Shown one piece after another: positions 20,131 to 45,962 of a DNA stretch of 64,000 bases. Source of the DNA: Candidatus Poribacteria bacterium (GTDB lineage Bacteria; Poribacteria; WGA-4E; WGA-3G); assembly GCA_965214095.1 (NCBI GenBank), contig OZ243938.1, forward strand, positions 608,001 to 672,000. Reading direction: 5' to 3'. A program made the translations under genes and the position numbers. The notes beneath the pieces were generated by a model. It was given only the letters and a program-made list of their open reading frames with translations, searched no databases and was not told where the DNA came from. Numbering within the stretch: position 1 is the first letter of the stretch; every line of letters starts with the position of its first letter.

Positions 20131-20910
20131 TTATTTTTTCTTAGGTTTTTTGAAATCTGTACTCTTAAATTCAACTGTGACATCACCATCTGCAGGAACT
20201 TCTACGGTTTTGTTAGCAGATCCGAGATCTTCATGCCACGCAATTACTCTCGTTCTACCTGCTGGAACTTCTTTCAATGTAAATTTACCTGTATCAGTCG
20301 ATTTTTCATAGGTATCAGGATCAATGAATTTATCTTTATCGTCTTTCTGTCCAGTTACAGTATAATAGTTACTATCTACCGCAACAATGTAACCTGACAT
20401 CCATGCATGAATATCACATGTCAACTTAATCGCTTCTGCTTTAGTGATTTTATAAGGTACTTTTGTGCCTTTTTGTGCAATCTGCACGTTCGGTGCCTCA
20501 TTCTTTTCAGCATGTGAATGAACATTGTGTGCTACTGGATCACTTGACGTAAGTTCTACCGTCGAACCTGTCGGAACAACGAGAACATGCGGCAAATAAC
20601 GACAGTTCTTTTGGTCAACAACTACATTCTCCTTGAGTGGCGTAACTGTATAACCCCTACCCCGTGCATAAATCACAACATTCTGGATACCTTTACCTTT
20701 AGATACAACAAGATTCTCAGATTTCGCACCCGCAGTTGAATCAATACAATGTTGTTCAGTCGTGTTAATTGTCAGGGCAGTACGCGCTGGGGCATCTCCT
20801 TCATAAATTACTGTTCCAGTTATATTGCCGGCAAATGCAAGACTAGTCATTGTCCCGATAATAAGTAATGTGAATATGATTTTTAAGTTTTTCATCGTTC
20901 TACTCCTCAA
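20131..20910 (-). CDS. Secreted cupredoxin-like / carboxypeptidase-regulatory-like domain protein (paralog 2)
   Basis: Signal peptide; DQKNCRYLPHV, HNVH, CDIHAWM, VIAWHE. Confidence 0.75.
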   Translation of the reverse strand: MRSRTMKNLKIIFTLLIIGTMTSLAFAGNITGTVIYEGDAPARTALTINTTEQHCIDSTAGAKSENLVVSKGKGIQNVVIYARGRGYTVTPLKENVVVDQKNCRYLPHVLVVPTGSTVELTSSDPVAHNVHSHAEKNEAPNVQIAQKGTKVPYKITKAEAIKLTCDIHAWMSGYIVAVDSNYYTVTGQKDDKDKFIDPDTYEKSTDTGKFTLKEVPAGRTRVIAWHEDLGSANKTVEVPADGDVTVEFKSTDFKKPKKK

Positions 20911-29292: not shown

Positions 29293-31776
29293 TTAACGTA
29301 ATATCTTTACATTGATAACCGGACTGTCTTGTTGAAAAGTCTTTCCGTTTATAATAGCAGTAGCACGAAATCTGACCTGATAGGTCTTGGCTTCCAAAGA
29401 ACTCAGTGCCTCTAAATCTACTTCAATATCATTTTCATTGATAGGTATAGTCGCATCTGGGATAGTGATACCTTCTGGCACCGTTATCGGTTTTATAGTA
29501 ACAATATCCGTAAAACTTCCCTTCCGAACAATGCTCATTGTAAGTGTTGCAGATTTGGTAATCGGTTCAACCTTCGTCTCAGGTTCTGCTTGTGAAGTTT
29601 CAGTTGGACTCGGATTTGAGACCGCGACAGTTTCACCTTCTGCTGCTGCTGCCTGTGGTGCAGTTTCGTCTGTTTGCTTTGGAAATACAATGCTAAAACG
29701 CAATGGTTCAATCGTTACAATAAATGGTGCTTCAACGACTGTCAAAGGTATAACAGGAGATGACTCGGAATAGTTTTCTCGGTTGACATTCGCGGTACCA
29801 CTCACAGAAATGTAACTTGTTCCTGGAGTGGGGACAACAGAGAACTGCTCTCGACGTTCAACTGTACCCGCTCTCAATGAAATCACTGCACTATTTTTAC
29901 CCGCAGGAATTGTTGCCTTTCCGCCTGTGATACGAGCCGGAACACCTTGCACATTTAAGGCAATTGCCCCAGTGAAGTCAGCCCTTCGATCCGCAATCAC
30001 ATGAAAGTTTGTAGCTTTATTGTGAACAACGTTCACATCAACATCAGCAAATGATAGTGTAAATGGTGGTGTGTCCAACACCGTCAAGAGAATACCTTTC
30101 GGTGATGCAGTTTCCTCTATACGTTGACCACCAACAGCACTAACGCCAACAATAGAAAATGGATGTAGTCCCAACTCAGCGTCCTTTGGTGCGGTAATCG
30201 TTAACAGTGCTTGATTTTGACCGGGAAAGAGAATAGTTGGACTAACAACAAATCCTTTGGGTAGATCAGGAGAATAAAAACGGAGTGCACCATTGAATCC
30301 ATCTATCCGTCCAACTGAAGCAGTCAACATAAGCGTGCCACCGCGGCTAATCCGAGGATTGTCAGCATTCACACTCAAACGAAAACCTTGTTTCAGAGTA
30401 CGTATTGTAAGTCTATACGGAAAATTACTACCACCTGCATTATTTAGGTCTCGTATTGAAATACCGTAATCACCGGCTTCTGGGAATGTAAATGCAATCC
30501 TTGCGTCTGTTCCACTTGCATCATCATTGACCCGTAATATCTGTTCTACTACACTTCCTTCTGCTTCACCCTTTTTATGTGAATAGATAGTTAGCACCGG
30601 GTCGAGATGTGAACGGAACTCGCGTGCTTTTACATCAAAGACTAAACTCGTTCCTTTTTCAACTTTGATGGAATACCTATCTACATCTCCTTCTTTCTCT
30701 ATTCTACCGTTGACTGTGATCGGTGTACCAATTTTGTTTTCTTGTGCCAACGCATCATTCGGTTCAGTCTCGTTAGTCTCATTAAATTCACCAATAGCAA
30801 ATGGATATGGGTTTGTCTCTAAACCGTTGGGATTGCTAACTCTGAGCTCCTGAATGCCAAGTGTTGCATCCGGTGAAATATCAAGTTGTATCGCATTCAC
30901 AGATCCCAAATTAGCACCAGCAACATTGACTGTATTTGCAGCACCGCGTTTTCCACCTAATGGAAAAACACTCTGAAGATAGGGTAACTCTCCGATATTC
31001 AACCGATATAGATAATTGCCACCACCTTGGTATCTCACATCACGTAGGTGTAGTGTATATTTCCCTGCCATTTGGGTCGTATAATCAATAAATGAATCTA
31101 ACCCATTCCCATCCAAACTTTTTACAACCTCAGTACCATTTGGGTCATACAAAACCATATACGAATCTAAAGGAGACCCAATACGTTGCGCGAATATATC
31201 AGATATGAGACGCGCTCCTTTTCTTAAATTAAAATGAAATATATCCACATCATCAATAGAAGCAACCGTACCATTAACAGTAACTGGCAACTCAAGCATA
31301 TTTGATTCTTCATTGGTAGAATTTGGCTCCTGCTCCTTCATCTCAGGGAGGTCACCGACCATGAAGTTTTGTGGGTTCGAGACACCGTTTGGTGTGATAA
31401 GACGTATCTGATGATTCCCGAGTGGTGCGTTCGGTGCAATTTCAAATGACAGAACTAACCGAGGGTCATTTGGAATGTTCGCTGAAATACCAGATCCTGT
31501 AAAGCGAACGGTCGCTACAGGTGTTTTTTGCTTTATTTCTGCTTTGATACCTTCTTTATTAAGCCAAATCTTCGCACTTTCGTCTATGTTTTTTCCGACT
31601 AATGTTACTTCGATCGTTTGTCCGCGTTGTGCTGCACGTGGGGATATACTCGACAATTGTGGCGCAACTTGGGCATGTGATATCCCTACAATCAAAAAGA
31701 AGGTTAGGACAACTTGAATTAGGAATTGTTTTTTATACTTTGTTGCTATATGTTTACAGAATAGTGGTTCAAGCAT
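29293..31776 (-). CDS. Secreted PPC-domain (pre-peptidase C-terminal) repeat protein, Planctomycete type
   Basis: Repeated E.EPN, TVNG.I...DVD.F, SPLDS, AG.Y.L.LRD..Y.GG..Y.YRL motifs. Confidence 0.8.
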   Translation of the reverse strand: MLEPLFCKHIATKYKKQFLIQVVLTFFLIVGISHAQVAPQLSSISPRAAQRGQTIEVTLVGKNIDESAKIWLNKEGIKAEIKQKTPVATVRFTGSGISANIPNDPRLVLSFEIAPNAPLGNHQIRLITPNGVSNPQNFMVGDLPEMKEQEPNSTNEESNMLELPVTVNGTVASIDDVDIFHFNLRKGARLISDIFAQRIGSPLDSYMVLYDPNGTEVVKSLDGNGLDSFIDYTTQMAGKYTLHLRDVRYQGGGNYLYRLNIGELPYLQSVFPLGGKRGAANTVNVAGANLGSVNAIQLDISPDATLGIQELRVSNPNGLETNPYPFAIGEFNETNETEPNDALAQENKIGTPITVNGRIEKEGDVDRYSIKVEKGTSLVFDVKAREFRSHLDPVLTIYSHKKGEAEGSVVEQILRVNDDASGTDARIAFTFPEAGDYGISIRDLNNAGGSNFPYRLTIRTLKQGFRLSVNADNPRISRGGTLMLTASVGRIDGFNGALRFYSPDLPKGFVVSPTILFPGQNQALLTITAPKDAELGLHPFSIVGVSAVGGQRIEETASPKGILLTVLDTPPFTLSFADVDVNVVHNKATNFHVIADRRADFTGAIALNVQGVPARITGGKATIPAGKNSAVISLRAGTVERREQFSVVPTPGTSYISVSGTANVNRENYSESSPVIPLTVVEAPFIVTIEPLRFSIVFPKQTDETAPQAAAAEGETVAVSNPSPTETSQAEPETKVEPITKSATLTMSIVRKGSFTDIVTIKPITVPEGITIPDATIPINENDIEVDLEALSSLEAKTYQVRFRATAIINGKTFQQDSPVINVKILR

Positions 31777-34109: not shown

Positions 34110-35558
34110 TTAGAATATGCCTGTAATCACTTCGCCTTTCACCAATTCCCGTGGTTGGTCTAAGTGATTCATCACAATAGTGTGCGGATCAATACCAAGT
34201 GTATGATAAATCGTAGCGAGGATATCGCGCGGATGCACAGGTTTTTCAAGTGGTGTTGAACCTGTTGCATCAGACTTACCATAAACCTGACCACCTTTGA
34301 CACCAGCACCTGCGATCAAACCGGTATAGCAATAGGGCCAATGGTCACGTCCATCAGGCGCGTTTCCATTACCAGATGTACTAATACCCATCCGTGGTGA
34401 TCGTCCAAATTCACCAATAGCGAGCACAAGCGTCTCTTCTAACATACCCTTCTGATCTAAATCTTCGAGCAGAGAAGAAACCGCACTATCTAACTTGGGA
34501 CAGTGTAGGTTTTTCAACGGACCAAAGTTGGCAGCATGCGTATCCCATGCAGTAGTATTTGGATTGCCGTTCGCTACTGAAGGCCAGTTCACCTGAACGA
34601 ATCGCGTACCTGCTTCTACCAAACGGCGTGCAAGCAGTGCACTCTGACCAAATGTATGTCGACCATACTTGTCACGTAGTACATCCGTTTCTTGAGACAA
34701 ATCAAACGCATTTCGTGCCTTCTGTGAAAGGATGAGATCATACGCCTTTTCATAATATTCGTTCAATGCATAAGAATCGGCGACCTTGTCAATCTCTGGC
34801 ATATTTGCGTTGATCGTTTCGAGTAGAGTTTTTCGACGCTGCAATCGCGCAGGTGGTATTTCGGGTCGGAGTGACAGATCATCCAACTTGATTTCTTGGT
34901 TCGGATCTTGGAAGAGAAAATACGGGTCATACGCTCTACCGAGGAACCCAGCATTTCCACCTTTACCAATGATACCACTCTCCTGCATCGGTCGTGGGAG
35001 TTGCACAGCTGCCAACATCGGTTCATCTGGTGGTTTGAACTTCGCAATATGTGCAGCAGCATTTGGATGGTCAGCAGGTGAGGGTGGGTCAAGCTGCCCC
35101 GAAGGCGCGACCTTGTCCGGTGTCTCTCCTGTAACCATCTGATACATCGCAGCAGTATGATTGAAAAGTCCCGCTGGCGTATAACTCACTGAACGAATCA
35201 GACATGCTTTATCCATCTGTTGCGCTAATTTCGGCATCGTTTCTGATAACTGAATGCCAGGTACATTTGTCGGAATAGGATTAAATTCACCCCGTATATT
35301 TGACGGAGCATCAGGTTTTGGATCCCAGATATCAATGTGACTCGGTCCACCTTGTAAGAATAGCAAAATGACAGAATTTGCTTTACCCCAACCGTTGAGA
35401 GGCGTCACGGGGGCAACTGTCGTGTTTGCCTTGGCTTGGAGTGACAATACTTGTGGTAGACTTATACCGAGCATCGCCGCGCCACCCACGCGGAGAAACT
35501 CTCTACGTGAGAACCCATCACATAATCTTCCGGGTGTTTGTGGTAACGATATCATCAA
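34110..35558 (-). CDS. DUF1501 domain protein (Tat-exported)
   Basis: SRREFLRVG; LQGGPSHIDIWDPKP; LLARRLVEAGTRFV; WDTH; GEFGRSP; GRDHWP. Confidence 0.93.
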   Translation of the reverse strand: MMISLPQTPGRLCDGFSRREFLRVGGAAMLGISLPQVLSLQAKANTTVAPVTPLNGWGKANSVILLFLQGGPSHIDIWDPKPDAPSNIRGEFNPIPTNVPGIQLSETMPKLAQQMDKACLIRSVSYTPAGLFNHTAAMYQMVTGETPDKVAPSGQLDPPSPADHPNAAAHIAKFKPPDEPMLAAVQLPRPMQESGIIGKGGNAGFLGRAYDPYFLFQDPNQEIKLDDLSLRPEIPPARLQRRKTLLETINANMPEIDKVADSYALNEYYEKAYDLILSQKARNAFDLSQETDVLRDKYGRHTFGQSALLARRLVEAGTRFVQVNWPSVANGNPNTTAWDTHAANFGPLKNLHCPKLDSAVSSLLEDLDQKGMLEETLVLAIGEFGRSPRMGISTSGNGNAPDGRDHWPYCYTGLIAGAGVKGGQVYGKSDATGSTPLEKPVHPRDILATIYHTLGIDPHTIVMNHLDQPRELVKGEVITGIF

Positions 35559-35621: not shown

Positions 35622-38111
35622 TTAACGATTGAATAAGAATGCAGGACTATTAATTAATGCCCACATCAAATCTTGTACGCCTTCCTCCTTAGATTTGGCA
35701 CTGGCAAGATGATCAATCGCAATCGTATATTCGTTCTCCATTGGTAACCGTGCAAATGTTGCAAGATACATCTCTTCAATGATGACACGATCATCATTGT
35801 TTTCTTTGAGGAGTTTTGCAATTCGTCCGTTAGGATCAATAATAGCATTCGCAACGGTTGGTCCGTTGATTAGGTTCATCGCATGAGCGAGGCTTACTTC
35901 AGTTGTTCTTTCACATTCACAAGAACTCTCACGTTCCGGACGACCAAACAATTTCAAAAATCCATCGTCCTTTACTTTACTATCGGGTAATTGAACAGCA
36001 CGGAACTCTTTTGGAACACCTTGAAACTTCGGTTGACTGCCAGTAGCAACACCTATGGCATCTAACAACTGTTCTGCTGTCAACCTTCTGGCAATTCCGT
36101 GTGAAAAATTAATCGTGTCTTCTTTATTCCATTCGTTCGTCTTGATACTCTGTTGATATGTTCGAGAACGGACAATCGTTTTCATGATATGCTTAATATC
36201 AAATCCGCTTTCAACAAAATCCTTCGTTAGGGCATCAAGAAGTTCAGGATTGCTGGGTGGGTTACTTGTCCGAATATCATCAACAGGTTCAATGATACCA
36301 CGTCCCATAAAGTAACTCCATATACGGTTTACACCAGCTCTCGCAAACATCGGATTTTCAGTTGAGGTTAACCATTCTGCTAAAGATTCACGTTTATTAG
36401 TGATTTCTTTCTTTGTTTCACCAAATGGAACAGACGGTGGCACAACCGCTAAGGTTCTCGGATGTTGAACCGGCGTAGGATTGAAACTGGCATAGACAAC
36501 TTCTTCACCCGGTAATCGTCCATTTTTGACCTTAACATCTGAGAAAAATGCACCGAATTCATAGTATTGATTCTGTGTCCATACCTCAAATGGATGGTCA
36601 TGGCATTTATTACAGGAGAACCGAACCCCAAGAAATAGCTGCGTTGTATTCTCAACTGCTGCAGTATATTCACGTGAAACACGGAAATAATTCGCCGCCG
36701 GGTTCTGATAAGCACTACCAGTAGCAGTAATCAAATCATGAACAAATTTGTCGTAAGGACGGTTTTCTGCAATTGACTCATGTATCCACTGTTGGAAAAG
36801 CCACATACCGCGTTCACCAAGGAATTTTCGGTTTGATTGCAGCAAATCACCCCATTTATGTGTCCAATGATCAACATATTCTGAGGTATCTACCAACTCA
36901 TCAATCAGTTTTTCACGTTTCTCCTTAGTGGGTGTTTTATCGGCAAGGAAACTTCGCACCTTATCAGGTGAAGGTGGCAGTCCGGTCATATCAAAATAAA
37001 TCCTACGTACAAACTCTTCATCTGTACAAAGTTCAGACGGTAGGATTTTCAACCTTTTCAGTTTGTTGTGGACATGTGTATCTATATAGTTGTAAACAGG
37101 TGTCTCAACCCATTCGTATCCACTCCGATCCCCCATCACGATGATGCCATTCGTACTATACGCACCTTCATAACGAGTAAGGATTGCAGTCTCTCCACGA
37201 CGTTCTGCTGTAACAACTCCATCGTCAGTTACCTTAGCAACGTCATTCATGCTGCTGGTGAATTTCGCTTCACGAGTGACATCACGTGTTGTGCCATCTG
37301 GATAGTGAGCAATAACTATTAATTGCTGCTTTGTCCCTGGCATAGACAACTCTGCTGAATCCGGAAATACCTCTAAACGTTCAACACGTTGGGTTTTTTC
37401 AACATCCGATACGACACCTTCACTAATCCATTGATGAATCAGATTGTAGTCACGCGATTCTGGAACGATGACCTGTCCACCCTTGTGTGGAACTTCCGAT
37501 GTCGGTTTCAGCAACATCAAACTCTGCTCTGGAAACGCACGATTGAAACGTCTACCTGATATATCCTCAATCAACAATTCGTAGTCGAAATCAGGATCGT
37601 AACCACGTAGAGAGAGTTTGAAGCCGTTTTTCCCTTTTGCACCACCATGACACGTGCCGTTATTACAACCCGCATGACTCAAGATCGGCATGACATCTCT
37701 AACAAAACTTACAGGTGGGGCATCAACACTTTTCACAGTCACAGGTAATTCGGTTGTCATACCATTAACTGTTACAACTATCTTTGTATTGCCAACTGCT
37801 GCAGGAAAGATATATCCATCTTCATGTAATTTTACACCATCTGAGGCAGGTTTTAGTACTGCCCACGTTGTTACATCAACCCATTTTCCATCTTTCGTTT
37901 GTCCCGAAACAAGCACACGACGACCATCTCGCGCATGCTCAAGCATCAGAGACTCTGGGTGAGTTTTCAACGCTTTTATATCAGGAACTTCTACACTCGG
38001 TGTTGTCTCCTCCATCTGACCCCATGTTGATTGTTGTAAAATCATACAACACGAGAGAACAACAAGAAGGGCAACAACCAAGTTTAAATTGAGTTTCACA
38101 TTAACCTCCAA
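35622..38111 (-). CDS. DUF1549/DUF1553 (PSCyt2/PSD1) protein with Ig-like domains
   Basis: SFVRDVMPIL..GCNNGTCHG; FVRRIYFDMTG; CNKCHDHPF; GRGIIEPVDD; CECER; DLMWALINS. Confidence 0.92.
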   Translation of the reverse strand: MEVNVKLNLNLVVALLVVLSCCMILQQSTWGQMEETTPSVEVPDIKALKTHPESLMLEHARDGRRVLVSGQTKDGKWVDVTTWAVLKPASDGVKLHEDGYIFPAAVGNTKIVVTVNGMTTELPVTVKSVDAPPVSFVRDVMPILSHAGCNNGTCHGGAKGKNGFKLSLRGYDPDFDYELLIEDISGRRFNRAFPEQSLMLLKPTSEVPHKGGQVIVPESRDYNLIHQWISEGVVSDVEKTQRVERLEVFPDSAELSMPGTKQQLIVIAHYPDGTTRDVTREAKFTSSMNDVAKVTDDGVVTAERRGETAILTRYEGAYSTNGIIVMGDRSGYEWVETPVYNYIDTHVHNKLKRLKILPSELCTDEEFVRRIYFDMTGLPPSPDKVRSFLADKTPTKEKREKLIDELVDTSEYVDHWTHKWGDLLQSNRKFLGERGMWLFQQWIHESIAENRPYDKFVHDLITATGSAYQNPAANYFRVSREYTAAVENTTQLFLGVRFSCNKCHDHPFEVWTQNQYYEFGAFFSDVKVKNGRLPGEEVVYASFNPTPVQHPRTLAVVPPSVPFGETKKEITNKRESLAEWLTSTENPMFARAGVNRIWSYFMGRGIIEPVDDIRTSNPPSNPELLDALTKDFVESGFDIKHIMKTIVRSRTYQQSIKTNEWNKEDTINFSHGIARRLTAEQLLDAIGVATGSQPKFQGVPKEFRAVQLPDSKVKDDGFLKLFGRPERESSCECERTTEVSLAHAMNLINGPTVANAIIDPNGRIAKLLKENNDDRVIIEEMYLATFARLPMENEYTIAIDHLASAKSKEEGVQDLMWALINSPAFLFNR

Positions 38112-38180: not shown

Positions 38181-38999
38181 TTACCTCTGATTCTTCAAAT
38201 CTCCCCAAACTACGGGCAATTTCCCGCGAGAGGATACATCTAAATATGCTGATTCACTTGCTAACCAATTAATTATATTTTCTGTGACTTGTTCTAAGTT
38301 ATCAATACTCTGATTATTCTTATGATAGTTTGGTAGTCGCCAATTCAAGTTAAAGACTTTACCGTCTCCTGCTTCCCAATACCCAAAGGCAGCAATTCTG
38401 TCAGCATAATCAGTTCCACCTTCCCAAGCATGAGCAAGGGTGGTAAAATTCTTAGCAAGACTGTCAAAATAATCCCCGCTCAGTGGATAACCCGTAGAAT
38501 TTAATTGAATCCAATCATTAAGTTTTGGAGCATCCCCATCAACGTTTTCCAGACCATCGATTAGACCAAGGTCTATTGTCTCTTGCAAAACAATTATTCC
38601 AACTTTACTGCCGTCGTCAACAACGGGGTCAAATAAGCGCGGTTGTGCAGCCTCAAGTCCCATGGGTGTGACATAACTAAATGCCCTACCCGTAAAGAGC
38701 AAAGCACCACCACTTTCGGCATAATCTAAAAGCGCATCAATTTCTGCATTGGACAACTCACCAGGATCGGTATCACCTTCATGCCACCACACAACGCCAT
38801 AATTCTTCAAAGTTGCACTCTTAATGTCGTTTTTTCCTAATTCTGTTGTGCTAAATGAATCTTTAGCAAATTCCAACGCAGGTTTCGTAAAATCTCCATT
38901 ATCTCCAAGATAAAGAAATCCTACCTCTAATGCTGCGTTTACCACATTTAAACCACATATTAGCATTAATGTCAAGTAAATGATAATTTTTTTATGCAT
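38181..38999 (-). CDS. Secreted protein with a class-I glutamine-amidotransferase-like fold and a C-terminal 'GKLPVVWGDLK' tail
   Basis: Signal peptide; YGVVWWH, LLDYAESGGALLF, GDGKVF, ENIINWL. Confidence 0.6.
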   Translation of the reverse strand: MHKKIIIYLTLMLICGLNVVNAALEVGFLYLGDNGDFTKPALEFAKDSFSTTELGKNDIKSATLKNYGVVWWHEGDTDPGELSNAEIDALLDYAESGGALLFTGRAFSYVTPMGLEAAQPRLFDPVVDDGSKVGIIVLQETIDLGLIDGLENVDGDAPKLNDWIQLNSTGYPLSGDYFDSLAKNFTTLAHAWEGGTDYADRIAAFGYWEAGDGKVFNLNWRLPNYHKNNQSIDNLEQVTENIINWLASESAYLDVSSRGKLPVVWGDLKNQR

Positions 39000-39087: not shown

Positions 39088-40539
39088 TCACATAGGACCA
39101 ACGCGTTCAGGCCCCCTATCCATAGCAAACATTGAGGCATCAAAACTTCTTTTCAATAAATCATATTTTATATCTTGTTTCTCTTGCAATTCCCAGAGAT
39201 TATTGAACTCATCCGCATCCTCAACTAAATCGTAGAGTTCACCCGCTTCATGTCCGTGGTATACTACTAACTTATAACGTTTATCTCGGTACATTGTTGC
39301 GTAGGAATGATCCCGGCTATCCAATGCATCATAGTATTCACAACGTACAAAGTCACGATGATGATTAGCATCCGATTCACCTTTGAGAACTGATAACAAT
39401 GATCGTCCATGCATCTCATCTGGAACAGACAATCCTGCCAATTCCAACAGTGTTGGCACTTTGTCAACAAGTTCAACAAGGGCATCACTTTTCAAACCAC
39501 TCTCAAAATTATCTGGATAGGAGAAAATCAATGGTACTCTGACCAAACCTTCATAAAAACGACATCCTTTTTGAATAAGACCGTGATCCCCTAACATCTC
39601 ACCATGATCACTTGTGAATATGATTACAGTGTTTTCTCGTTGTCCTGTTTCGTCAAGTACATCCAACATTCGTCCTAACTGATCATCAATCAGTTTAATC
39701 ATCGCATAATATGCTGCAATAAACGTCTTGGCATCTCTTTTACCAACTGTGCCGTCACGTTTCGTCCCTGGTGATCGAGGTAGTATTGGATTACGAATGT
39801 CAAGTTCATCTGGTGTTCTGACTTTTGATTGGAAATCTATTTTTTCCAATCTTTGCTGTTGTTCTAAATCACTCTCTTTGAATAGCGGTTCAGGCATCTC
39901 ATCAGAATTAAACTGTTCGCGGTATGTCTGTGGTGGATTGAATGGTGGATGTGGGTCATATATGTTAACACTCGCAAGCCAAGGACCATCACGTTCCTCC
40001 CGGATAAAATCTATCGTTTTTTCCGCACACCAAGTTGTTTGGTGTAATTCTGCAGGAACACCTTCAGGGTTCTTGGTTAACTCCCCAAGAATATACCCTT
40101 TTGAACGAACCCAATCGGCATAATCGTGACCTTCTTTCCAATCATCTCGTGGGGCATGACTGTATTGCCAATAACGGTAACCATCGTTCGCCCGCGGTTC
40201 TATTCTACCATAAGCACTCGCAAGATGTAATTTTCCTATCAGTCCACAATCGTAACCTATGTCTGCAAGTGTACGCGTAATCAGAGGATATGTCTCAGGA
40301 TAATAAGCGTTCCCATTGCCATTAACATGCGTTGCACTCGGATACATCCCTGTCAAGAAACTGGAACGACTCGGTGTACATATCGGACTTTGACAATAGG
40401 CATGTGTAAAGGCTACACCCTCTGCAACTAAACTATCTATATTCGGTGTTGAGACATAAGGATTGCCTAATGCACCTATAGTATCGTAACGTTGTTGGTC
40501 TGTGCAAATCCAAAGGATATTTGGCTTTTCAATAGGCAT
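39088..40539 (-). CDS. Formylglycine-dependent sulfatase (choline-sulfatase-like)
   Basis: KPNILWICTDQQR, CTPSRSSFLTG, GKLH, TSDHGEMLGDHG. Confidence 0.93.
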   Translation of the reverse strand: MPIEKPNILWICTDQQRYDTIGALGNPYVSTPNIDSLVAEGVAFTHAYCQSPICTPSRSSFLTGMYPSATHVNGNGNAYYPETYPLITRTLADIGYDCGLIGKLHLASAYGRIEPRANDGYRYWQYSHAPRDDWKEGHDYADWVRSKGYILGELTKNPEGVPAELHQTTWCAEKTIDFIREERDGPWLASVNIYDPHPPFNPPQTYREQFNSDEMPEPLFKESDLEQQQRLEKIDFQSKVRTPDELDIRNPILPRSPGTKRDGTVGKRDAKTFIAAYYAMIKLIDDQLGRMLDVLDETGQRENTVIIFTSDHGEMLGDHGLIQKGCRFYEGLVRVPLIFSYPDNFESGLKSDALVELVDKVPTLLELAGLSVPDEMHGRSLLSVLKGESDANHHRDFVRCEYYDALDSRDHSYATMYRDKRYKLVVYHGHEAGELYDLVEDADEFNNLWELQEKQDIKYDLLKRSFDASMFAMDRGPERVGPM

Positions 40540-40549
40540 CTATGTACGT

Positions 40550-42241
40550 CTACTTTGCGGTAGCAGTAAAACCCACTGTTTTAACGACATCTGTGAGTTC
40601 GTCAACTTTTGTTGTGTTCTTACGAACCTTAATAACTGCTTGATCAGGGAGAGAAACTTCGGCACTAATAACGTTCTGATGTTTTGTAAGTGCATCCTGC
40701 ACTTTTGCTACACACGCACTTCATGTCATACCCGATACTGTCAATACCACCTCTTCGCTGGCAGTTGTTTCTATTGGCACGGACATAAACATTTTCAGTT
40801 GACTACCTGAGTTTGCATCAAAGATACGAATTTTGCCATCAAAACCGCCTGCAGCAAGTTGTGTGCCATCTGGATGAAAAGCAAGTGCAAAAACTGATAC
40901 GGTATCACCTTGCATTGATGCCAACCGTTTCCCATCTGCTACATTGTATATACGTGCTTCTCCAGAAGAACTACCCGTAGCAAATTTGCTTCCATCTGCA
41001 GAAAAGGCAACAGACTTAATTGCCCCAGACTGCGCTTCGTAAGCACGAATGAGATTGAAGTCTGTGTTACCAACATCTCTACGAGTTTGACGGAACATTC
41101 TATAAAGTCTTGGAATTCGGTCTTCTCCTACACTTAACACCTGGTCTTCATTAGGATGCCGTGCAATTGCGTTGATTTCTCCGTAACCTTTGTTACTTGA
41201 ATTTACATCGTCTACAAAAGAACCTGTATCAACTTCAACCAATTTCAGGGCAGTATCACGACTACAACTTACAAAATGCGATCCATCAGTAGAAAATACA
41301 GTACCGAACACCCAATCACCATGATTGTCAAATTTAACAAGTTCCTTCTCGTCCGCTACAGAGATTACACGCACAGTCTTATCAGAAGAACCTATAGCAA
41401 CACGGGACACATCTGGTGAAAATGAGAGTCCATAAATTGTGTCATAAGTTGAACGGATTGCTTTGTTAAGTGTGTTCGTTGCAGTATCCCAAAGCTGTAT
41501 TTCTCCAAATTGTGCAGGAGAACCGCCAGCAACCCCAAGTGTTTTACCGCCATCCGCATAGACAATTGATGTTATGCGACGGGCTTTTCCAACATATCGC
41601 GCTTTGATCTCAAAGGTCTTGGAATCATACAATAAGACTTCATTAACACCTGACACAGCGAGTGTCGTTCCATCAGGTGAAAAAGCAAGTGCTGAAACAA
41701 CTGGTGGCACTGTGTATACAGGAAGTTCGCCATCCATTGCATCTGCATTCTCTGGAGTATCATCCTTCGCTCCCTCAAGAATCCATCGTCTGAATAAATC
41801 TATCTCTTCTTTGGTGAGTGGGTCTTGATTCTGTGGCATAGCAGGTGGATCCCCAGAAATAAGTTCAATGAGTAAACTTTCATCCGGTTTGCCTACAATG
41901 ATGGCTTCTCCTGCCATTCCACCCCGTTTGAGCTCAGCATAAGTCGTTACTATCAAATCTGCATTTGGATCACCAGGGTGATGACAACCTTGGCAGCTAC
42001 GTTTTAGGATCGGTACAATCTGTGTATGGTAACTAACCGGTTTCTCTTTATCGTGACCGTCTGCCATAACGGAAGGATTCCAAAGTAAAAAACTGATTAA
42101 AATTAGACCAAAATAAGATATAAACTTCATACTTGATATACTCATTTTTGTATCACTCCCTAAGATCACACAATCTGCAACATTTGAGATTATTAACACA
42201 ACTTTGCGGTAATTATACAACAATTCCAACTTATAATTCAA
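40550..42241 (-). CDS. Planctomycete cytochrome c (PSCyt1) + WD40 propeller + C-terminal HMA domain with U-x-x-C; predicted selenoprotein
   Basis: CQGCH and WD repeats. The track stops at TGA 40721-40723 inside VVLTVSGMT*, but the frame continues SACVAKVQDALTKHQNVISAEVSLPDQAVIKVRKNTTKVDELTDVVKTVGFTATAK to TAG 40550. Real start is probably MSISSMK or MKFISYF. Confidence 0.88.
40685..40720 (-). promoter_or_regulatory. Putative bacterial SECIS element
   Basis: After the UGA: UGUA..AAGUGCA-GGA-UGCACUU-ACA, a perfect 7-bp upper stem with a G-first loop 23 nt from the UGA. Confidence 0.7.
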
Positions 42242-43196: not shown

Positions 43197-44162
43197 TTGA
43201 GATCACGTAATTTAAGAAAGCACCTAAGTTTGTTAATGTTGTTCATACTAATTATTGTAACTGGATGCCATGATAAAGTAGATGTTGATCATAAATCCGA
43301 TAGGAAATTGAACGTCGTCTCTACAATTGGTATGATTACTGATATAGTTGAAAATGTAGGACGAGATAGAATAGACATTACAGGTATTATCGGGGAAGGT
43401 GTTGACCCACACCACTACAAACCAACGGCAAGAGACACTGAAATTATGAAGGACGCAGATATTATCTTCTATAATGGATTACATCTTGAAGTTAGAATAA
43501 CCGGATCAGTCTTTAAAAAAATGGATGATAAAACGAAAGCAATCGCTGTAACAGATGGAATAAATCGTTCACAACTTCGGAAAACATCGGAGTTTATAGG
43601 TGGATATGACCCACATGTATGGCATGATGTCTCTTTGTGGATGAAGGCAACAGAAAAAATTCAAGACACATTAATAAAGAGAGATCCACAAAATGCTGAA
43701 TATTATCGTGCCAATGCAAAATATTACTTGACGCAGTTAGATTCTTTGCACTATGAGATGCAAAGACTTTCAGCACTGATACCAATAAAGCGACGGGTGC
43801 TTATAACAACTCATGATGCATTTGGTTATCTTGGAAAAGCCTACGGTTTTGAAGTGCGCGGTTTACTAGGTATAAATACGGAAGATGAAGTAAGCATTGC
43901 TGATGTTAGAGATCTCGCAGAATACATTATTGAAAATAGAATCTCAACTATGTTTGTTGAGACTTCCTCCCCGCCACGTGGTATCTTTGCTGTTCAAGCA
44001 GCTGTGAAGGCAAGAGGTTTCAACGTTAAAATTGGTGGTGGATTGTTTTCGGATGCAATGGGTACGCCCGGCACAACTGAAGGTACTTATATCGGGATGA
44101 TGCGACACAACATAAACATCATAGTAAGCATGCTTCAAACAGAGTTAGCATATCATGAGTAA
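43197..44162 (+). CDS. Zn/Mn ABC transporter substrate-binding lipoprotein (TroA/MntA-like)
   Basis: Lipobox VTGC; GVDPHHYKP, YNGLHLE, DPHVW, HDAFGY, LFSDAMG. Confidence 0.92.
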   Translation: MRSRNLRKHLSLLMLFILIIVTGCHDKVDVDHKSDRKLNVVSTIGMITDIVENVGRDRIDITGIIGEGVDPHHYKPTARDTEIMKDADIIFYNGLHLEVRITGSVFKKMDDKTKAIAVTDGINRSQLRKTSEFIGGYDPHVWHDVSLWMKATEKIQDTLIKRDPQNAEYYRANAKYYLTQLDSLHYEMQRLSALIPIKRRVLITTHDAFGYLGKAYGFEVRGLLGINTEDEVSIADVRDLAEYIIENRISTMFVETSSPPRGIFAVQAAVKARGFNVKIGGGLFSDAMGTPGTTEGTYIGMMRHNINIIVSMLQTELAYHE

Positions 44163-44208
44163 TTGGTTGTTATAGTTCATAGAATTTCGTATCAAATTTA
44201 CTACTTTG

Positions 44209-44236
44209 AAAGACGGGTTACTATGCCCGTCTTTTT
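44209..44236 (+). terminator. Rho-independent terminator
   Basis: AAAGACGGGT-loop-GCCCGTCTTTTT. Confidence 0.7.
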
Positions 44237-44305
44237 GATTCCTATTCAAACAAATTTAGATTGTACAATTGACATTTGCTGAATAGACCTGAAATGTCTT
44301 TTTCG

Positions 44306-44334
44306 TTGACTTCTTTCGAAATATCAGTTATACT
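44306..44334 (+). promoter_or_regulatory. sigma70-like promoter of the yceI-like gene
   Basis: TTGACT-17 nt-TATACT. Confidence 0.55.
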
Positions 44335-44394
44335 GAAATTATATTTAATCCTATTTGAAAACAAGACTATAACTATTTATAAAGAGGTATCCTG

Positions 44395-45012
44395 ATGATT
44401 ATCTGGTTTAGACGACACTGGCATGTTTCATTTATTGGACTTTTGGTATTAGGAATATTTATCATATCTTTTAATCAACAGTCAGAATCCCAAAATACTG
44501 AGAAAACATATAATATTGACTCTGTCCATTCATCCGTACTTTTCCGAGCGAAACACATGGGAGTTGCTTACAATTACGGCAGATTCAACGAATTCTCAGG
44601 TAATATCGTATTGGATGATACTGATATATCCAAAAGTAAAGTTGAATTTGAAGTGAAAAGTGCAAGTGTTGACACTGCAAATGCCAAACGTGACCAACAT
44701 CTAAGAAGTTCAGACTTCTTTAGTGTAAAACAGTTCCCAGTTATTACTTTCAAAAGCACAAATGTCAGTACCAAGGCTGAACAAGAAAATATGTTGGAAG
44801 TTACAGGAGAACTCAATCTGCACGGTGTGAAGAAATCAATAACCATTGATGTTGAAATAACGGGTAAGAAGTCTATCCCACAAACTGGTGAAGTAATCGG
44901 TTTTCATACAATCTTTGACATAAAACGGAGTGAATACGGAATTAATTTTGCAATGGACGGTGTCAATGATGACATCCAAATAATTATCAGTGTTGAAGCA
45001 GCAAATAAATAG
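44395..45012 (+). CDS. YceI family protein
   Basis: IDSVHSSVLF..KHMG..GRF, SVDT..KRDQHLRSSDFF, GELNLHGV. Confidence 0.93.
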   Translation: MIIWFRRHWHVSFIGLLVLGIFIISFNQQSESQNTEKTYNIDSVHSSVLFRAKHMGVAYNYGRFNEFSGNIVLDDTDISKSKVEFEVKSASVDTANAKRDQHLRSSDFFSVKQFPVITFKSTNVSTKAEQENMLEVTGELNLHGVKKSITIDVEITGKKSIPQTGEVIGFHTIFDIKRSEYGINFAMDGVNDDIQIIISVEAANK

Positions 45013-45059: not shown

Positions 45060-45962
45060 GTGCCAACTCTTAATCAGTTGTTTTTCAGATTGATAATTCC
45101 TGCTATCGTTTGTGGTGGAATATACATTGCAGCCATATTCATACGGACGCGTTCAGAAAACAAAAAACATCTATTATGGTCAACTGCTGTTGCAATTGCA
45201 ATAGCATACATTATTGGTTACATCAGCATAGAACGTACAATTACATTTCTTCCAAGAGAAGGTATACATTGGTTATTCTATCTCACTTTATTTGCACTTT
45301 TCAGTAGTACTTATTGGGATTCTGAAGGATTACGACGAACAATTTCACAGGGACTCTATTCTATTATAATACCACGGATTTTGTTAGACGCACTTTTTAG
45401 ACATACATGGGGTACTTTTCAAGAAATAATCTGGTGGATATCCTTGTCTGTGGGAATATTTGTTTTTTGGAATATAGTAAAACAGAGTTTTTCGGATAGT
45501 CCATCAGTTAGTTCTGTTCCGTTAGTATATTTTGTTCTATCTGGTGGAACTGCATTGATATTAGCGTTAACAGGAAGTCTTAGGTTAGCACAACATGCAG
45601 GTATATTAACAGCAAGTCTCGCAGCAGTATGGATCATTACGCTTACCTTACAATATAGGATGCAAGTAGATAGCGAAATAAATCTCTTTGAATTCCCACA
45701 GAGTCTATCTCCATTGCTTGTTTTCTTATTCGTTGCTATCTGGATGAACGGATATTTTTACGGTGAAACGCCATTCATTTGTGTCCTACTGTTGGCGATT
45801 TCACCCACTTTCACACTGATGGGAAAATTAAATATATTTAGCGGATTAATGAGCAAAAAACCGGTATTGATACAAGTTGGACTTATAGTGCTGTGTATTG
45901 GTATAGCAGTCGCAATAGCAGTTGTTCGTTCCGGACTATTCGGTGAAGACACATACTACTAA
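45060..45962 (+). CDS. Integral membrane protein, unknown function
   Basis: 300 aa with about 9-10 hydrophobic segments. Confidence 0.7.
   Translation: MPTLNQLFFRLIIPAIVCGGIYIAAIFIRTRSENKKHLLWSTAVAIAIAYIIGYISIERTITFLPREGIHWLFYLTLFALFSSTYWDSEGLRRTISQGLYSIIIPRILLDALFRHTWGTFQEIIWWISLSVGIFVFWNIVKQSFSDSPSVSSVPLVYFVLSGGTALILALTGSLRLAQHAGILTASLAAVWIITLTLQYRMQVDSEINLFEFPQSLSPLLVFLFVAIWMNGYFYGETPFICVLLLAISPTFTLMGKLNIFSGLMSKKPVLIQVGLIVLCIGIAVAIAVVRSGLFGEDTYY

Follow-up and report, generated by a model that had tools for sequence, protein, structure and literature searches.

Gene structure at the locus

In a 64,000-nucleotide (nt) stretch of the genome of a sponge-symbiotic Candidatus Poribacteria bacterium (assembly GCA_965214095.1, contig OZ243938.1, positions 608,001 to 672,000; hereafter the window), an earlier note made from the letters alone had proposed a hidden selenoprotein, namely a cytochrome c and WD40 protein that reads through an in-frame TGA into a metal-binding HMA domain. 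The genome amounts to 5.25 Mb in 4 contigs and is 94% complete. On the minus strand of the window, an open reading frame (ORF) from ATG 42145 reaches an in-frame TGA (40723-40721) at the place of the first Cys in the GMTCxxC loop of HMA domains. The peptide context of this stop is VVLTVSGMT-TGA-SACVAKVQDAL, and the minus-strand letters around it are GGT ATG ACA TGA AGT GCG TGT GTA GCA AAA GTG CAG GAT GCA CTT. Beyond the TGA, 56 codons are open in the same frame and end at TAG 40552-40550, with the ATG of a sulfatase gene (40539) 10 nt past it. The letters bear out what had been claimed for the TGA at 40721-40723, as replacing the first Cys of the loop, and for the 56-codon continuation to a TAG 10 nt ahead of the sulfatase. 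The proposed span of 40550-42241 stood at its TAG end but not at its start, since TTG 42241 is merely the mechanical first start of the ORF and the orthologue alignments begin at ATG 42145 (MSISSMKF...). The features of the gene, with the TGA translated as selenocysteine (Sec, U), are the following.

40550..42145, minus: full coding sequence of the predicted selenoprotein, 531 residues with U475 (translation with TGA=U; orthologues align over 1-531 with one TGA)
42062..42145, minus: probable signal peptide of the secretory (Sec) type, residues 1-28, ending VMA/D (hydrophobic core at residues 8-22; predicted cleavage site)
41834..41995, minus: PSCyt1 (Planctomycete cytochrome c) domain, residues 51-104 (Pfam PF07635, 34.8 bits against a cut-off of 22)
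41981-41995, minus: haem motif C51-Q-G-C54-H55 (CQGCH invariant in 22/22 aligned orthologues)
40766..41698, minus: seven-bladed WD40 beta-propeller, approximately residues 150-460 (Pfam WD40 and several propeller families)
40553..40759, minus: C-terminal HMA domain (MerP/CopZ-like), residues 463-531 (Pfam PF00403, 38.5 bits against a cut-off of 24.8)
40721..40723, minus: TGA as predicted selenocysteine U475, first ligand of GMT-U-SA-C (TGA in 55/70 loci, TGY in 6, no HMA domain in 9)
40712..40714, minus: TGT, Cys478, second ligand of UxxC (invariant in 22/22 aligned orthologues; C450 in mature numbering)
40688..40704, minus: candidate Sec insertion sequence (SECIS) AAGUGCA-GGA-UGCACUU, 7 bp stem and loop GGA, over codons K-V-Q-D-A-L (supported by pairing, by suppressed silent change and by loss in Cys forms)

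The HMA region spans the TGA, strand beta1 (VVLTVSGMT) being encoded wholly upstream of it. In an AlphaFold2 model built from a 22-row alignment (mean pLDDT 78, pTM 0.74), residues 463-531 fold as beta-alpha-beta-beta-alpha-beta with pLDDT 80-92 and the Sec lies between beta1 and helix alpha1, so that the Pfam score and the model together give the complete HMA/CopZ-like fold that had been expected after read-through. The propeller region is modelled mostly at pLDDT 80-97 and its best Foldseek matches are seven-bladed propellers; the search of the model against the PDB returned generic propellers of this kind only, none of them matching the whole architecture. Because beta1 and the GMT of the loop lie upstream of the TGA, neither the 474-residue product that would end there nor a 50-codon ORF that can be drawn from GTG 40702 forms an HMA domain alone. 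The c-type haem motif and the signal peptide suggest that the protein is exported and periplasmic, and the same motif predicts haem attachment.

Conservation of the in-frame TGA

Among the same-genus genomes, 23/24 hold an orthologue (76-94% identity), each aligned over residues 1-531 with exactly one TGA. We then scanned 176 genomes of the phylum at a threshold of E <= 1e-80 and found an orthologue in 133. The family to which this bacterium belongs (f1) accounts for 110 of them, out of 112 genomes (109/111 plus its own genome, G000), and all 110 show one TGA with the alignment reaching residue 528-531. Three further TGA-bearing orthologues lie outside this family (G064, G027 and G088), nine genomes of a sister family (f3) have a stop-free orthologue of equal reach, and in the remaining eleven the match stops near residue 460.

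Reading 70 loci base by base at the first-Cys position of GM[TM]-x-x-x-C, we found TGA in 55, a Cys codon (TGC or TGT) in 6 and no HMA domain in 9. The 55 include two of the eleven orthologues with matches ending near residue 460, in which a longer linker had cut the alignment. The two positions that separate U from C show no fixed residues (SA, GA, GV, PA, AL, AS, LV, TV, EA, GG, AA), as expected for a CxxC loop, and some orthologues terminate at a TGA just past the HMA domain. Relatives thus carry TGA or Cys at this column, the two states for which the earlier note had proposed to look, and a TGA kept in more than 100 assemblies is neither a read error nor private to one strain. In a quick tree of the haem and propeller part, the Sec forms fell into three groups, the Cys forms into two and the tail-less ones into three, which requires at least five changes among these states.

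One orthologue (L043, at G064:C1:396086-398700) has two tandem HMA domains, each with its own TGA and its own hairpin, AAGUGCA-GGU-CGCACUC. It would be a double selenoprotein in which a third TGA is the true stop.

Selection and a conserved hairpin downstream of the TGA

Selection was estimated by the Nei-Gojobori method on 276 pairs of 24 same-genus sequences. The ratio of nonsynonymous to synonymous differences (pN/pS) was 0.155 over the 120 codons before the TGA and 0.208 over the 54 codons after it; the latter value, obtained at divergences with synonymous sites more than half saturated, indicates that the tail is translated and constrained, and the purifying selection anticipated for this region was therefore found. 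Within the tail, pS was 0.059 over the six codons that form the hairpin (K V Q D A L) and 0.580 in the 43 codons that follow (codons 12-54), a ten-fold suppression of silent change.

Bacterial SECIS elements sit within the coding sequence. The perfect hairpin that had been pointed out just downstream of the TGA is present at 40704-40688; its stem begins 17 nt after the UGA and its loop at the 24th nt. They are described (PMC1088965) as a stem-loop that lies immediately 3' of the UGA and has a G in its small apical loop, and the 7-bp stem and GGA loop found here agree with that description. Among the 55 Sec forms, the core GUGCA-GGN-UGCAC is exact in 51 and the loop begins with GG in all, and the third loop base varies although the amino acid changes. 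In contrast, the six Cys forms all keep the peptide KVQxAL but have no GG loop (GAA, AAC or GAG instead), and their Ala codon is GCG, not GCA. Over a 57-row alignment, 97.9% of 378 cells pair, as against 15-47% when the partners are slid. Comparison of these sequences shows an RNA-level constraint acting on the hairpin.

Selenocysteine machinery and related hairpins in the genome

The four genes for which the earlier note had proposed to search (selA, selB, selC and selD) are all present. SelA was found with an E value of 1e-161 and SelB was detected by its wing domain; SelD carries a TGA of its own at the canonical CAG-U position, and a tRNA-SeC with anticodon TCA lies directly after selB (approximately 150 nt downstream).

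G000:C1:1272212-1273138, plus: SelD as a selenoprotein (KCAG-U-ASKL)
G000:C1:4989200-4989589: tRNA-SeC by selB

TGA also terminates 446 of the 2226 stop-to-stop frames of 300 codons or more in this genome, and it is therefore a common true stop that has undergone no genome-wide recoding.

Across 5.2 Mb we counted 8 distinct sites with the 13-base pattern GTGCAGNNTGCAC, against 1.2 expected. Three of these sites lie exactly 21 nt after the in-frame TGA of an HMA loop, one in the gene studied here and the others in two tandem lipoprotein genes described below. Another lies 17 nt after the TGA of a gene of the UGSC family, which served as the in-genome positive control for this type of hairpin and was chosen after the structure at SelD had proved unlike it.

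G000:C1:825464-825988, plus: UGSC-family (seleno)protein, NF041046 (155.6 bits against a cut-off of 125), TGA at 825749, hairpin CGUGCA-GUA-UGCACG

One more copy of GTGCAGNNTGCAC lies in the window at approximately 20475-20487 (C1:628487, minus). Its upstream TGAs, at 13 and 22 nt, belong to frames of only 18 and 13 codons, and we regard it as a probable chance occurrence.

Relation to known selenoproteins and public records

HMA-type selenoproteins are known as a kind. In the extracts of two surveys that we consulted, the selenoproteome table of the GOS study (PMC2398784) has entries for a 'Mercuric transport protein MerP' and for a cation-transporting ATPase with UxxC, and the table of a 2026 review (PMC13188914) lists NF041115 (UxxU) together with a cation-transporting P-type ATPase (E1-E2) with UxxC. 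The Sec P-type ATPase of these sources shares with the protein described here a UxxC in a heavy-metal family, but there the motif belongs to a domain on the cytoplasmic side of a membrane pump. NF041115, NF045683 and the MerP-like proteins likewise have an HMA fold with Sec in the loop and the UGA at the loop Cys, and their genes are usually truncated in databases. However, the known families are small stand-alone or MerT-fused proteins, with UxxU in NF041115, whereas here a UxxC domain forms the tail of a 531-residue haem c and WD40 protein. We assume that the Sec of the known P-type ATPase selenoprotein lies in an HMA domain. The Cys forms of MerP and CopZ have the same GMTCxxC loop and beta-alpha-beta-beta-alpha-beta fold, and MerP is likewise exported; the present protein differs from them in having Sec as the predicted first ligand and in that the domain is fused rather than free.

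The nearest NCBIfam families were the UxxU metal-binding, MerTP, MerA N-terminus, CopZ and MerP families, none of which reached its cut-off. NF041115 (UxxU metal-binding (seleno)protein) scored 36.9 bits against 95 and the motif here is UxxC, so that the protein is not a member; nor is it a MerP (TIGR02052; 30.3 bits against 92.55), and CopZ models gave 32-34 bits against cut-offs of 85-95. NF045683, a MerT/CopZ fusion-like selenoprotein family with a cut-off of 375, gave no match, and the two small lipoprotein paralogues scored 38 and 24 bits with it. In public protein sets, the 120 best matches go under the names 'hypothetical protein' or 'WD40 repeat protein', are 398-494 residues long and all stop at the TGA. 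They span no more than 89% of the query, and with the 400-531 segment as query they matched exactly residues 400-474.

The text consulted of the 2026 review (PMC13188914) has 0 mentions each of WD40, Planctomycete cytochrome and Poribacteria. Our literature searches on Poribacteria and selenoproteins returned a single paper, concerning hydrogenases, and those for a link between DUF1501 and DUF1553 returned none; searches on selenoproteins together with HMA domains likewise gave no account of this protein. A fusion of a Sec-containing HMA domain to haem c and WD40 was not found in print, the supplementary tables of selenoproteome papers, which might list it, being outside the search. The statement that no such architecture was known therefore stands for the fusion in the literature searched and not for its parts, as Sec-HMA domains and PSCyt1/WD40 proteins were each already known. 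What appears to be new is the fusion and its near-universal presence in one family of Poribacteria.

Gene neighbourhood

The gene is part of a larger set in the window, which holds the four-gene DUF1501 set on one strand plus the sulfatase and three other genes.

39088..40539, minus: sulfatase, 10 nt downstream, probably co-transcribed (Pfam Sulfatase)
38181-38999, minus: 272-residue ORF, no Pfam family over threshold
35622-38111, minus: PSCyt2+PSD1 (DUF1549/DUF1553) gene (Pfam)
34110-35558, minus: DUF1501 gene (Pfam)
29293-31776, minus: PPC-domain protein gene, same strand and within 13 kb of the selenoprotein gene
43197-45012, plus: ZnuA-type metal ABC binding protein and YceI-like protein, divergent from the selenoprotein gene
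45060-45962, plus: 300-residue ORF, no Pfam family over threshold

Kamneva et al. 2012 (PMC3542564, in the part consulted) described in PVC bacteria clusters of four genes that encode DUF1501, PPC-domain, PSCyt1/Big_2/PSCyt2/PSD1 and PSCyt1/WD40 proteins. With a PSCyt1 and WD40 gene beside DUF1501, PSCyt2/PSD1 and PPC genes, the present set belongs to this type (PMC3542564), and the N-terminal architecture and the kinds of neighbours are alike, although the PSCyt1/WD40 proteins described in that part of the paper have no HMA tail. The sulfatase is directly downstream in at least 41 of the 70 orthologous loci, many of which have short flanks, and in three or more of them the 272-residue ORF is kept beside one of these two genes, the sulfatase or the selenoprotein.

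We also read 12 PSCyt1/WD40 homologues from a wider protein collection (39-51% identical), ten of which end after the propeller, while one has an insert and one continues into PSCyt2. The HMA tail was found in none of these 12, which makes it look like an addition within Poribacteria. They came from an exhaustive search of representatives with the full-length query, whose results were dominated by giant WD40 repeat proteins and contained no HMA-bearing homologue. The proposed tie between the DUF1501/DUF1553 system and selenium-dependent metal handling is drawn from gene neighbourhood and would apply only to the Poribacteria lineages that have the HMA tail, not to the wider, tail-less homologues.

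In a tail-less clade (L036, in G051), a TGA closes the PSCyt1/WD40 gene, and the next gene, of PSCyt2/PSD1 type, is in the same frame. In protein P0204 the PSCyt1/WD40 and PSCyt2/PSD1-type parts are joined in a single chain of 640 residues, which supports a functional link between the two subunits.

Interpretation and alternatives

The Sec genes, the conservation of the TGA, the Cys of the sister clade, the selection past the TGA and the G-loop hairpin all support the earlier proposal of a hidden selenoprotein with haem c, WD40 and a UxxC HMA domain. We believe that the UGA is very probably decoded as Sec. For the whole, the best explanation is in all likelihood an exported selenoprotein of 531 residues that combines haem c, WD40 and a Sec-containing HMA domain with a predicted soft-metal site. 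In the mechanism that we propose, the UGA at 40723-40721 would be recoded by the SelB and tRNA-Sec of the organism, guided by the hairpin at 40704-40688, and the resulting Sec-x-x-Cys site would bind Cu(I), Hg(II) or another soft metal ion. Of the two ligands in GMTCxxC, the first Cys is the one that is exposed and more reactive; at this place, an exposed and fully ionised selenolate may act as the capturing ligand, and the selenoprotein might work with the neighbouring DUF1501 and PSCyt2-PSD1 proteins. Since the metal-binding signature is complete and the nearest families are all soft-metal binders, we read the tail as a MerP-like site of the Cu(I)/Hg(II) class, and metal binding is the role that we somewhat favour for the UxxC.

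Several observations weigh against parts of this interpretation. The local fold energy is unremarkable (z = 0.11 against shuffles in an 86-nt window) and Rfam, scanned over 40400-40900 with hits accepted to E = 10, yielded a chance match to a viral pseudoknot only; with a hairpin of ordinary stability, the case for it rests on its conservation. This conservation is in turn partly at the protein level, because the stem overlaps the conserved peptide KVQxAL, and the contrast with the Cys forms comes from six sequences in only two clades. Covariation is thin, with three pairs invariant, two that change from A-U to G-U and one of the seven changed on both sides. In addition, the UGA of SelD in the same genome precedes a structure that looks different and has no obvious likeness to this hairpin. 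The argument for Sec insertion is a comparative one, both here and in the relatives. As for function, the metal and the partner of the UxxC site are predicted from sequence, the haem domain is poorly modelled (pLDDT 34-67), and the ZnuA neighbour is found in only 9/70 orthologous loci, all of the same genus.

The main rival accepts the Sec but takes the UxxC as a redox centre, in which a selenenylsulfide would cycle and exchange electrons with the haem c of the protein itself or with its PSCyt2/DUF1501 partners. It draws on the c-type haem motif on the same chain, on the cytochrome-like domains of the cluster partners, and on the abstract of a 2026 review, which gives selenoproteins a critical part in antioxidant defence and places Sec in their active site. 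Nevertheless, the loop retains the full GMT-x-x-x-C metal signature on an HMA fold and the best NCBIfam neighbours are all metal binders. Moreover, HMA domains are not, to our knowledge, known as oxidoreductases, and we consider a redox role unlikely, if clearly conceivable.

The other two alternatives dispense with Sec. Sequence comparison is blind to which residue is inserted, and the UGA might be read through outside the Sec pathway, with Trp, Cys or Gly supplied by a suppressor tRNA or a near-cognate one. However, this genome has a complete Sec pathway, the TGA-free orthologues always have Cys at the aligned residue (6/6), and the hairpin has a conserved G-containing loop, as in the established UGSC selenoprotein family of the same genome. 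A general suppressor fits poorly also with TGA as a common true stop (446/2226 long frames) that even ends some orthologues after the HMA domain, and we regard this explanation as very improbable. That the TGA is a genuine stop, leaving a 474-residue product and 56 codons that are either a decaying remnant or a separate small gene from GTG 40702, would agree with all 120 best public protein calls, which end there, and with the 50-codon ORF that can be drawn. A remnant would hardly remain under purifying selection where pS is approximately 0.58, nor be open and aligned in all 110 genomes of the family; the separation of beta1 and GMT from the remainder would leave neither piece able to make the domain, and nine genomes have an uninterrupted Cys version. 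A genuine stop is thus, if anything, still harder to credit than suppression.

As a Sec-containing HMA domain, the tail would offer the first clue to what any protein of the DUF1501/PSCyt/PSD1 clusters does, and it would point to periplasmic metal or redox chemistry. Such clusters abound in Planctomycetes, Verrucomicrobia and Poribacteria.

Other HMA candidates and the Poribacteria selenoproteome

The two lipoprotein genes that share the hairpin and its spacing lie in tandem, and their loops read GMT-U-GSC and GLA-U-GSC, with hairpins UAGUGCA-GUC-UGCACUA and AAGUGCA-GUC-UGCACUU, respectively.

G000:C1:4077497-4078400, minus: tandem pair of genes for small lipoproteins of 128 and 118 residues, lipoboxes LLTGC and AFGC, each with one HMA domain with an in-frame TGA

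Homologues of these HMA(UxxC) lipoproteins were found throughout the family (61/61 genomes), almost always with a single TGA. Of the HMA domains in this genome, the three that are exported each have the predicted Sec, whereas the single cytoplasmic one, in a P-type ATPase (GMHCEGC), has Cys; the pattern (3/3 against 1/1) is suggestive, the sample being small. We may speculate, and with considerable doubt, that all periplasm-facing HMA domains of Poribacteria use Sec for soft-metal capture in an oxidising compartment, and that the DUF1501/PSCyt/PSD1 system handles a redox-active soft metal or metalloid with passage of electrons between haem and the Se-S pair.

If the UGA is read as proposed, the whole orthologous group is truncated in public protein sets and, with further HMA(UxxC) lipoproteins unrecognised, the selenoproteome of Poribacteria would be under-counted. 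The near-invariant hairpin GUGCA-GNN-UGCAC at a fixed offset would represent a lineage-specific SECIS signature, usable to mine genomes for selenoproteins. Finally, four genomes (G090, G091, G092 and G136) contain arrays of four to seven consecutive HMA-like matches, mostly with one TGA each, an indication that certain genera have HMA selenoproteins with several domains or in tandem.

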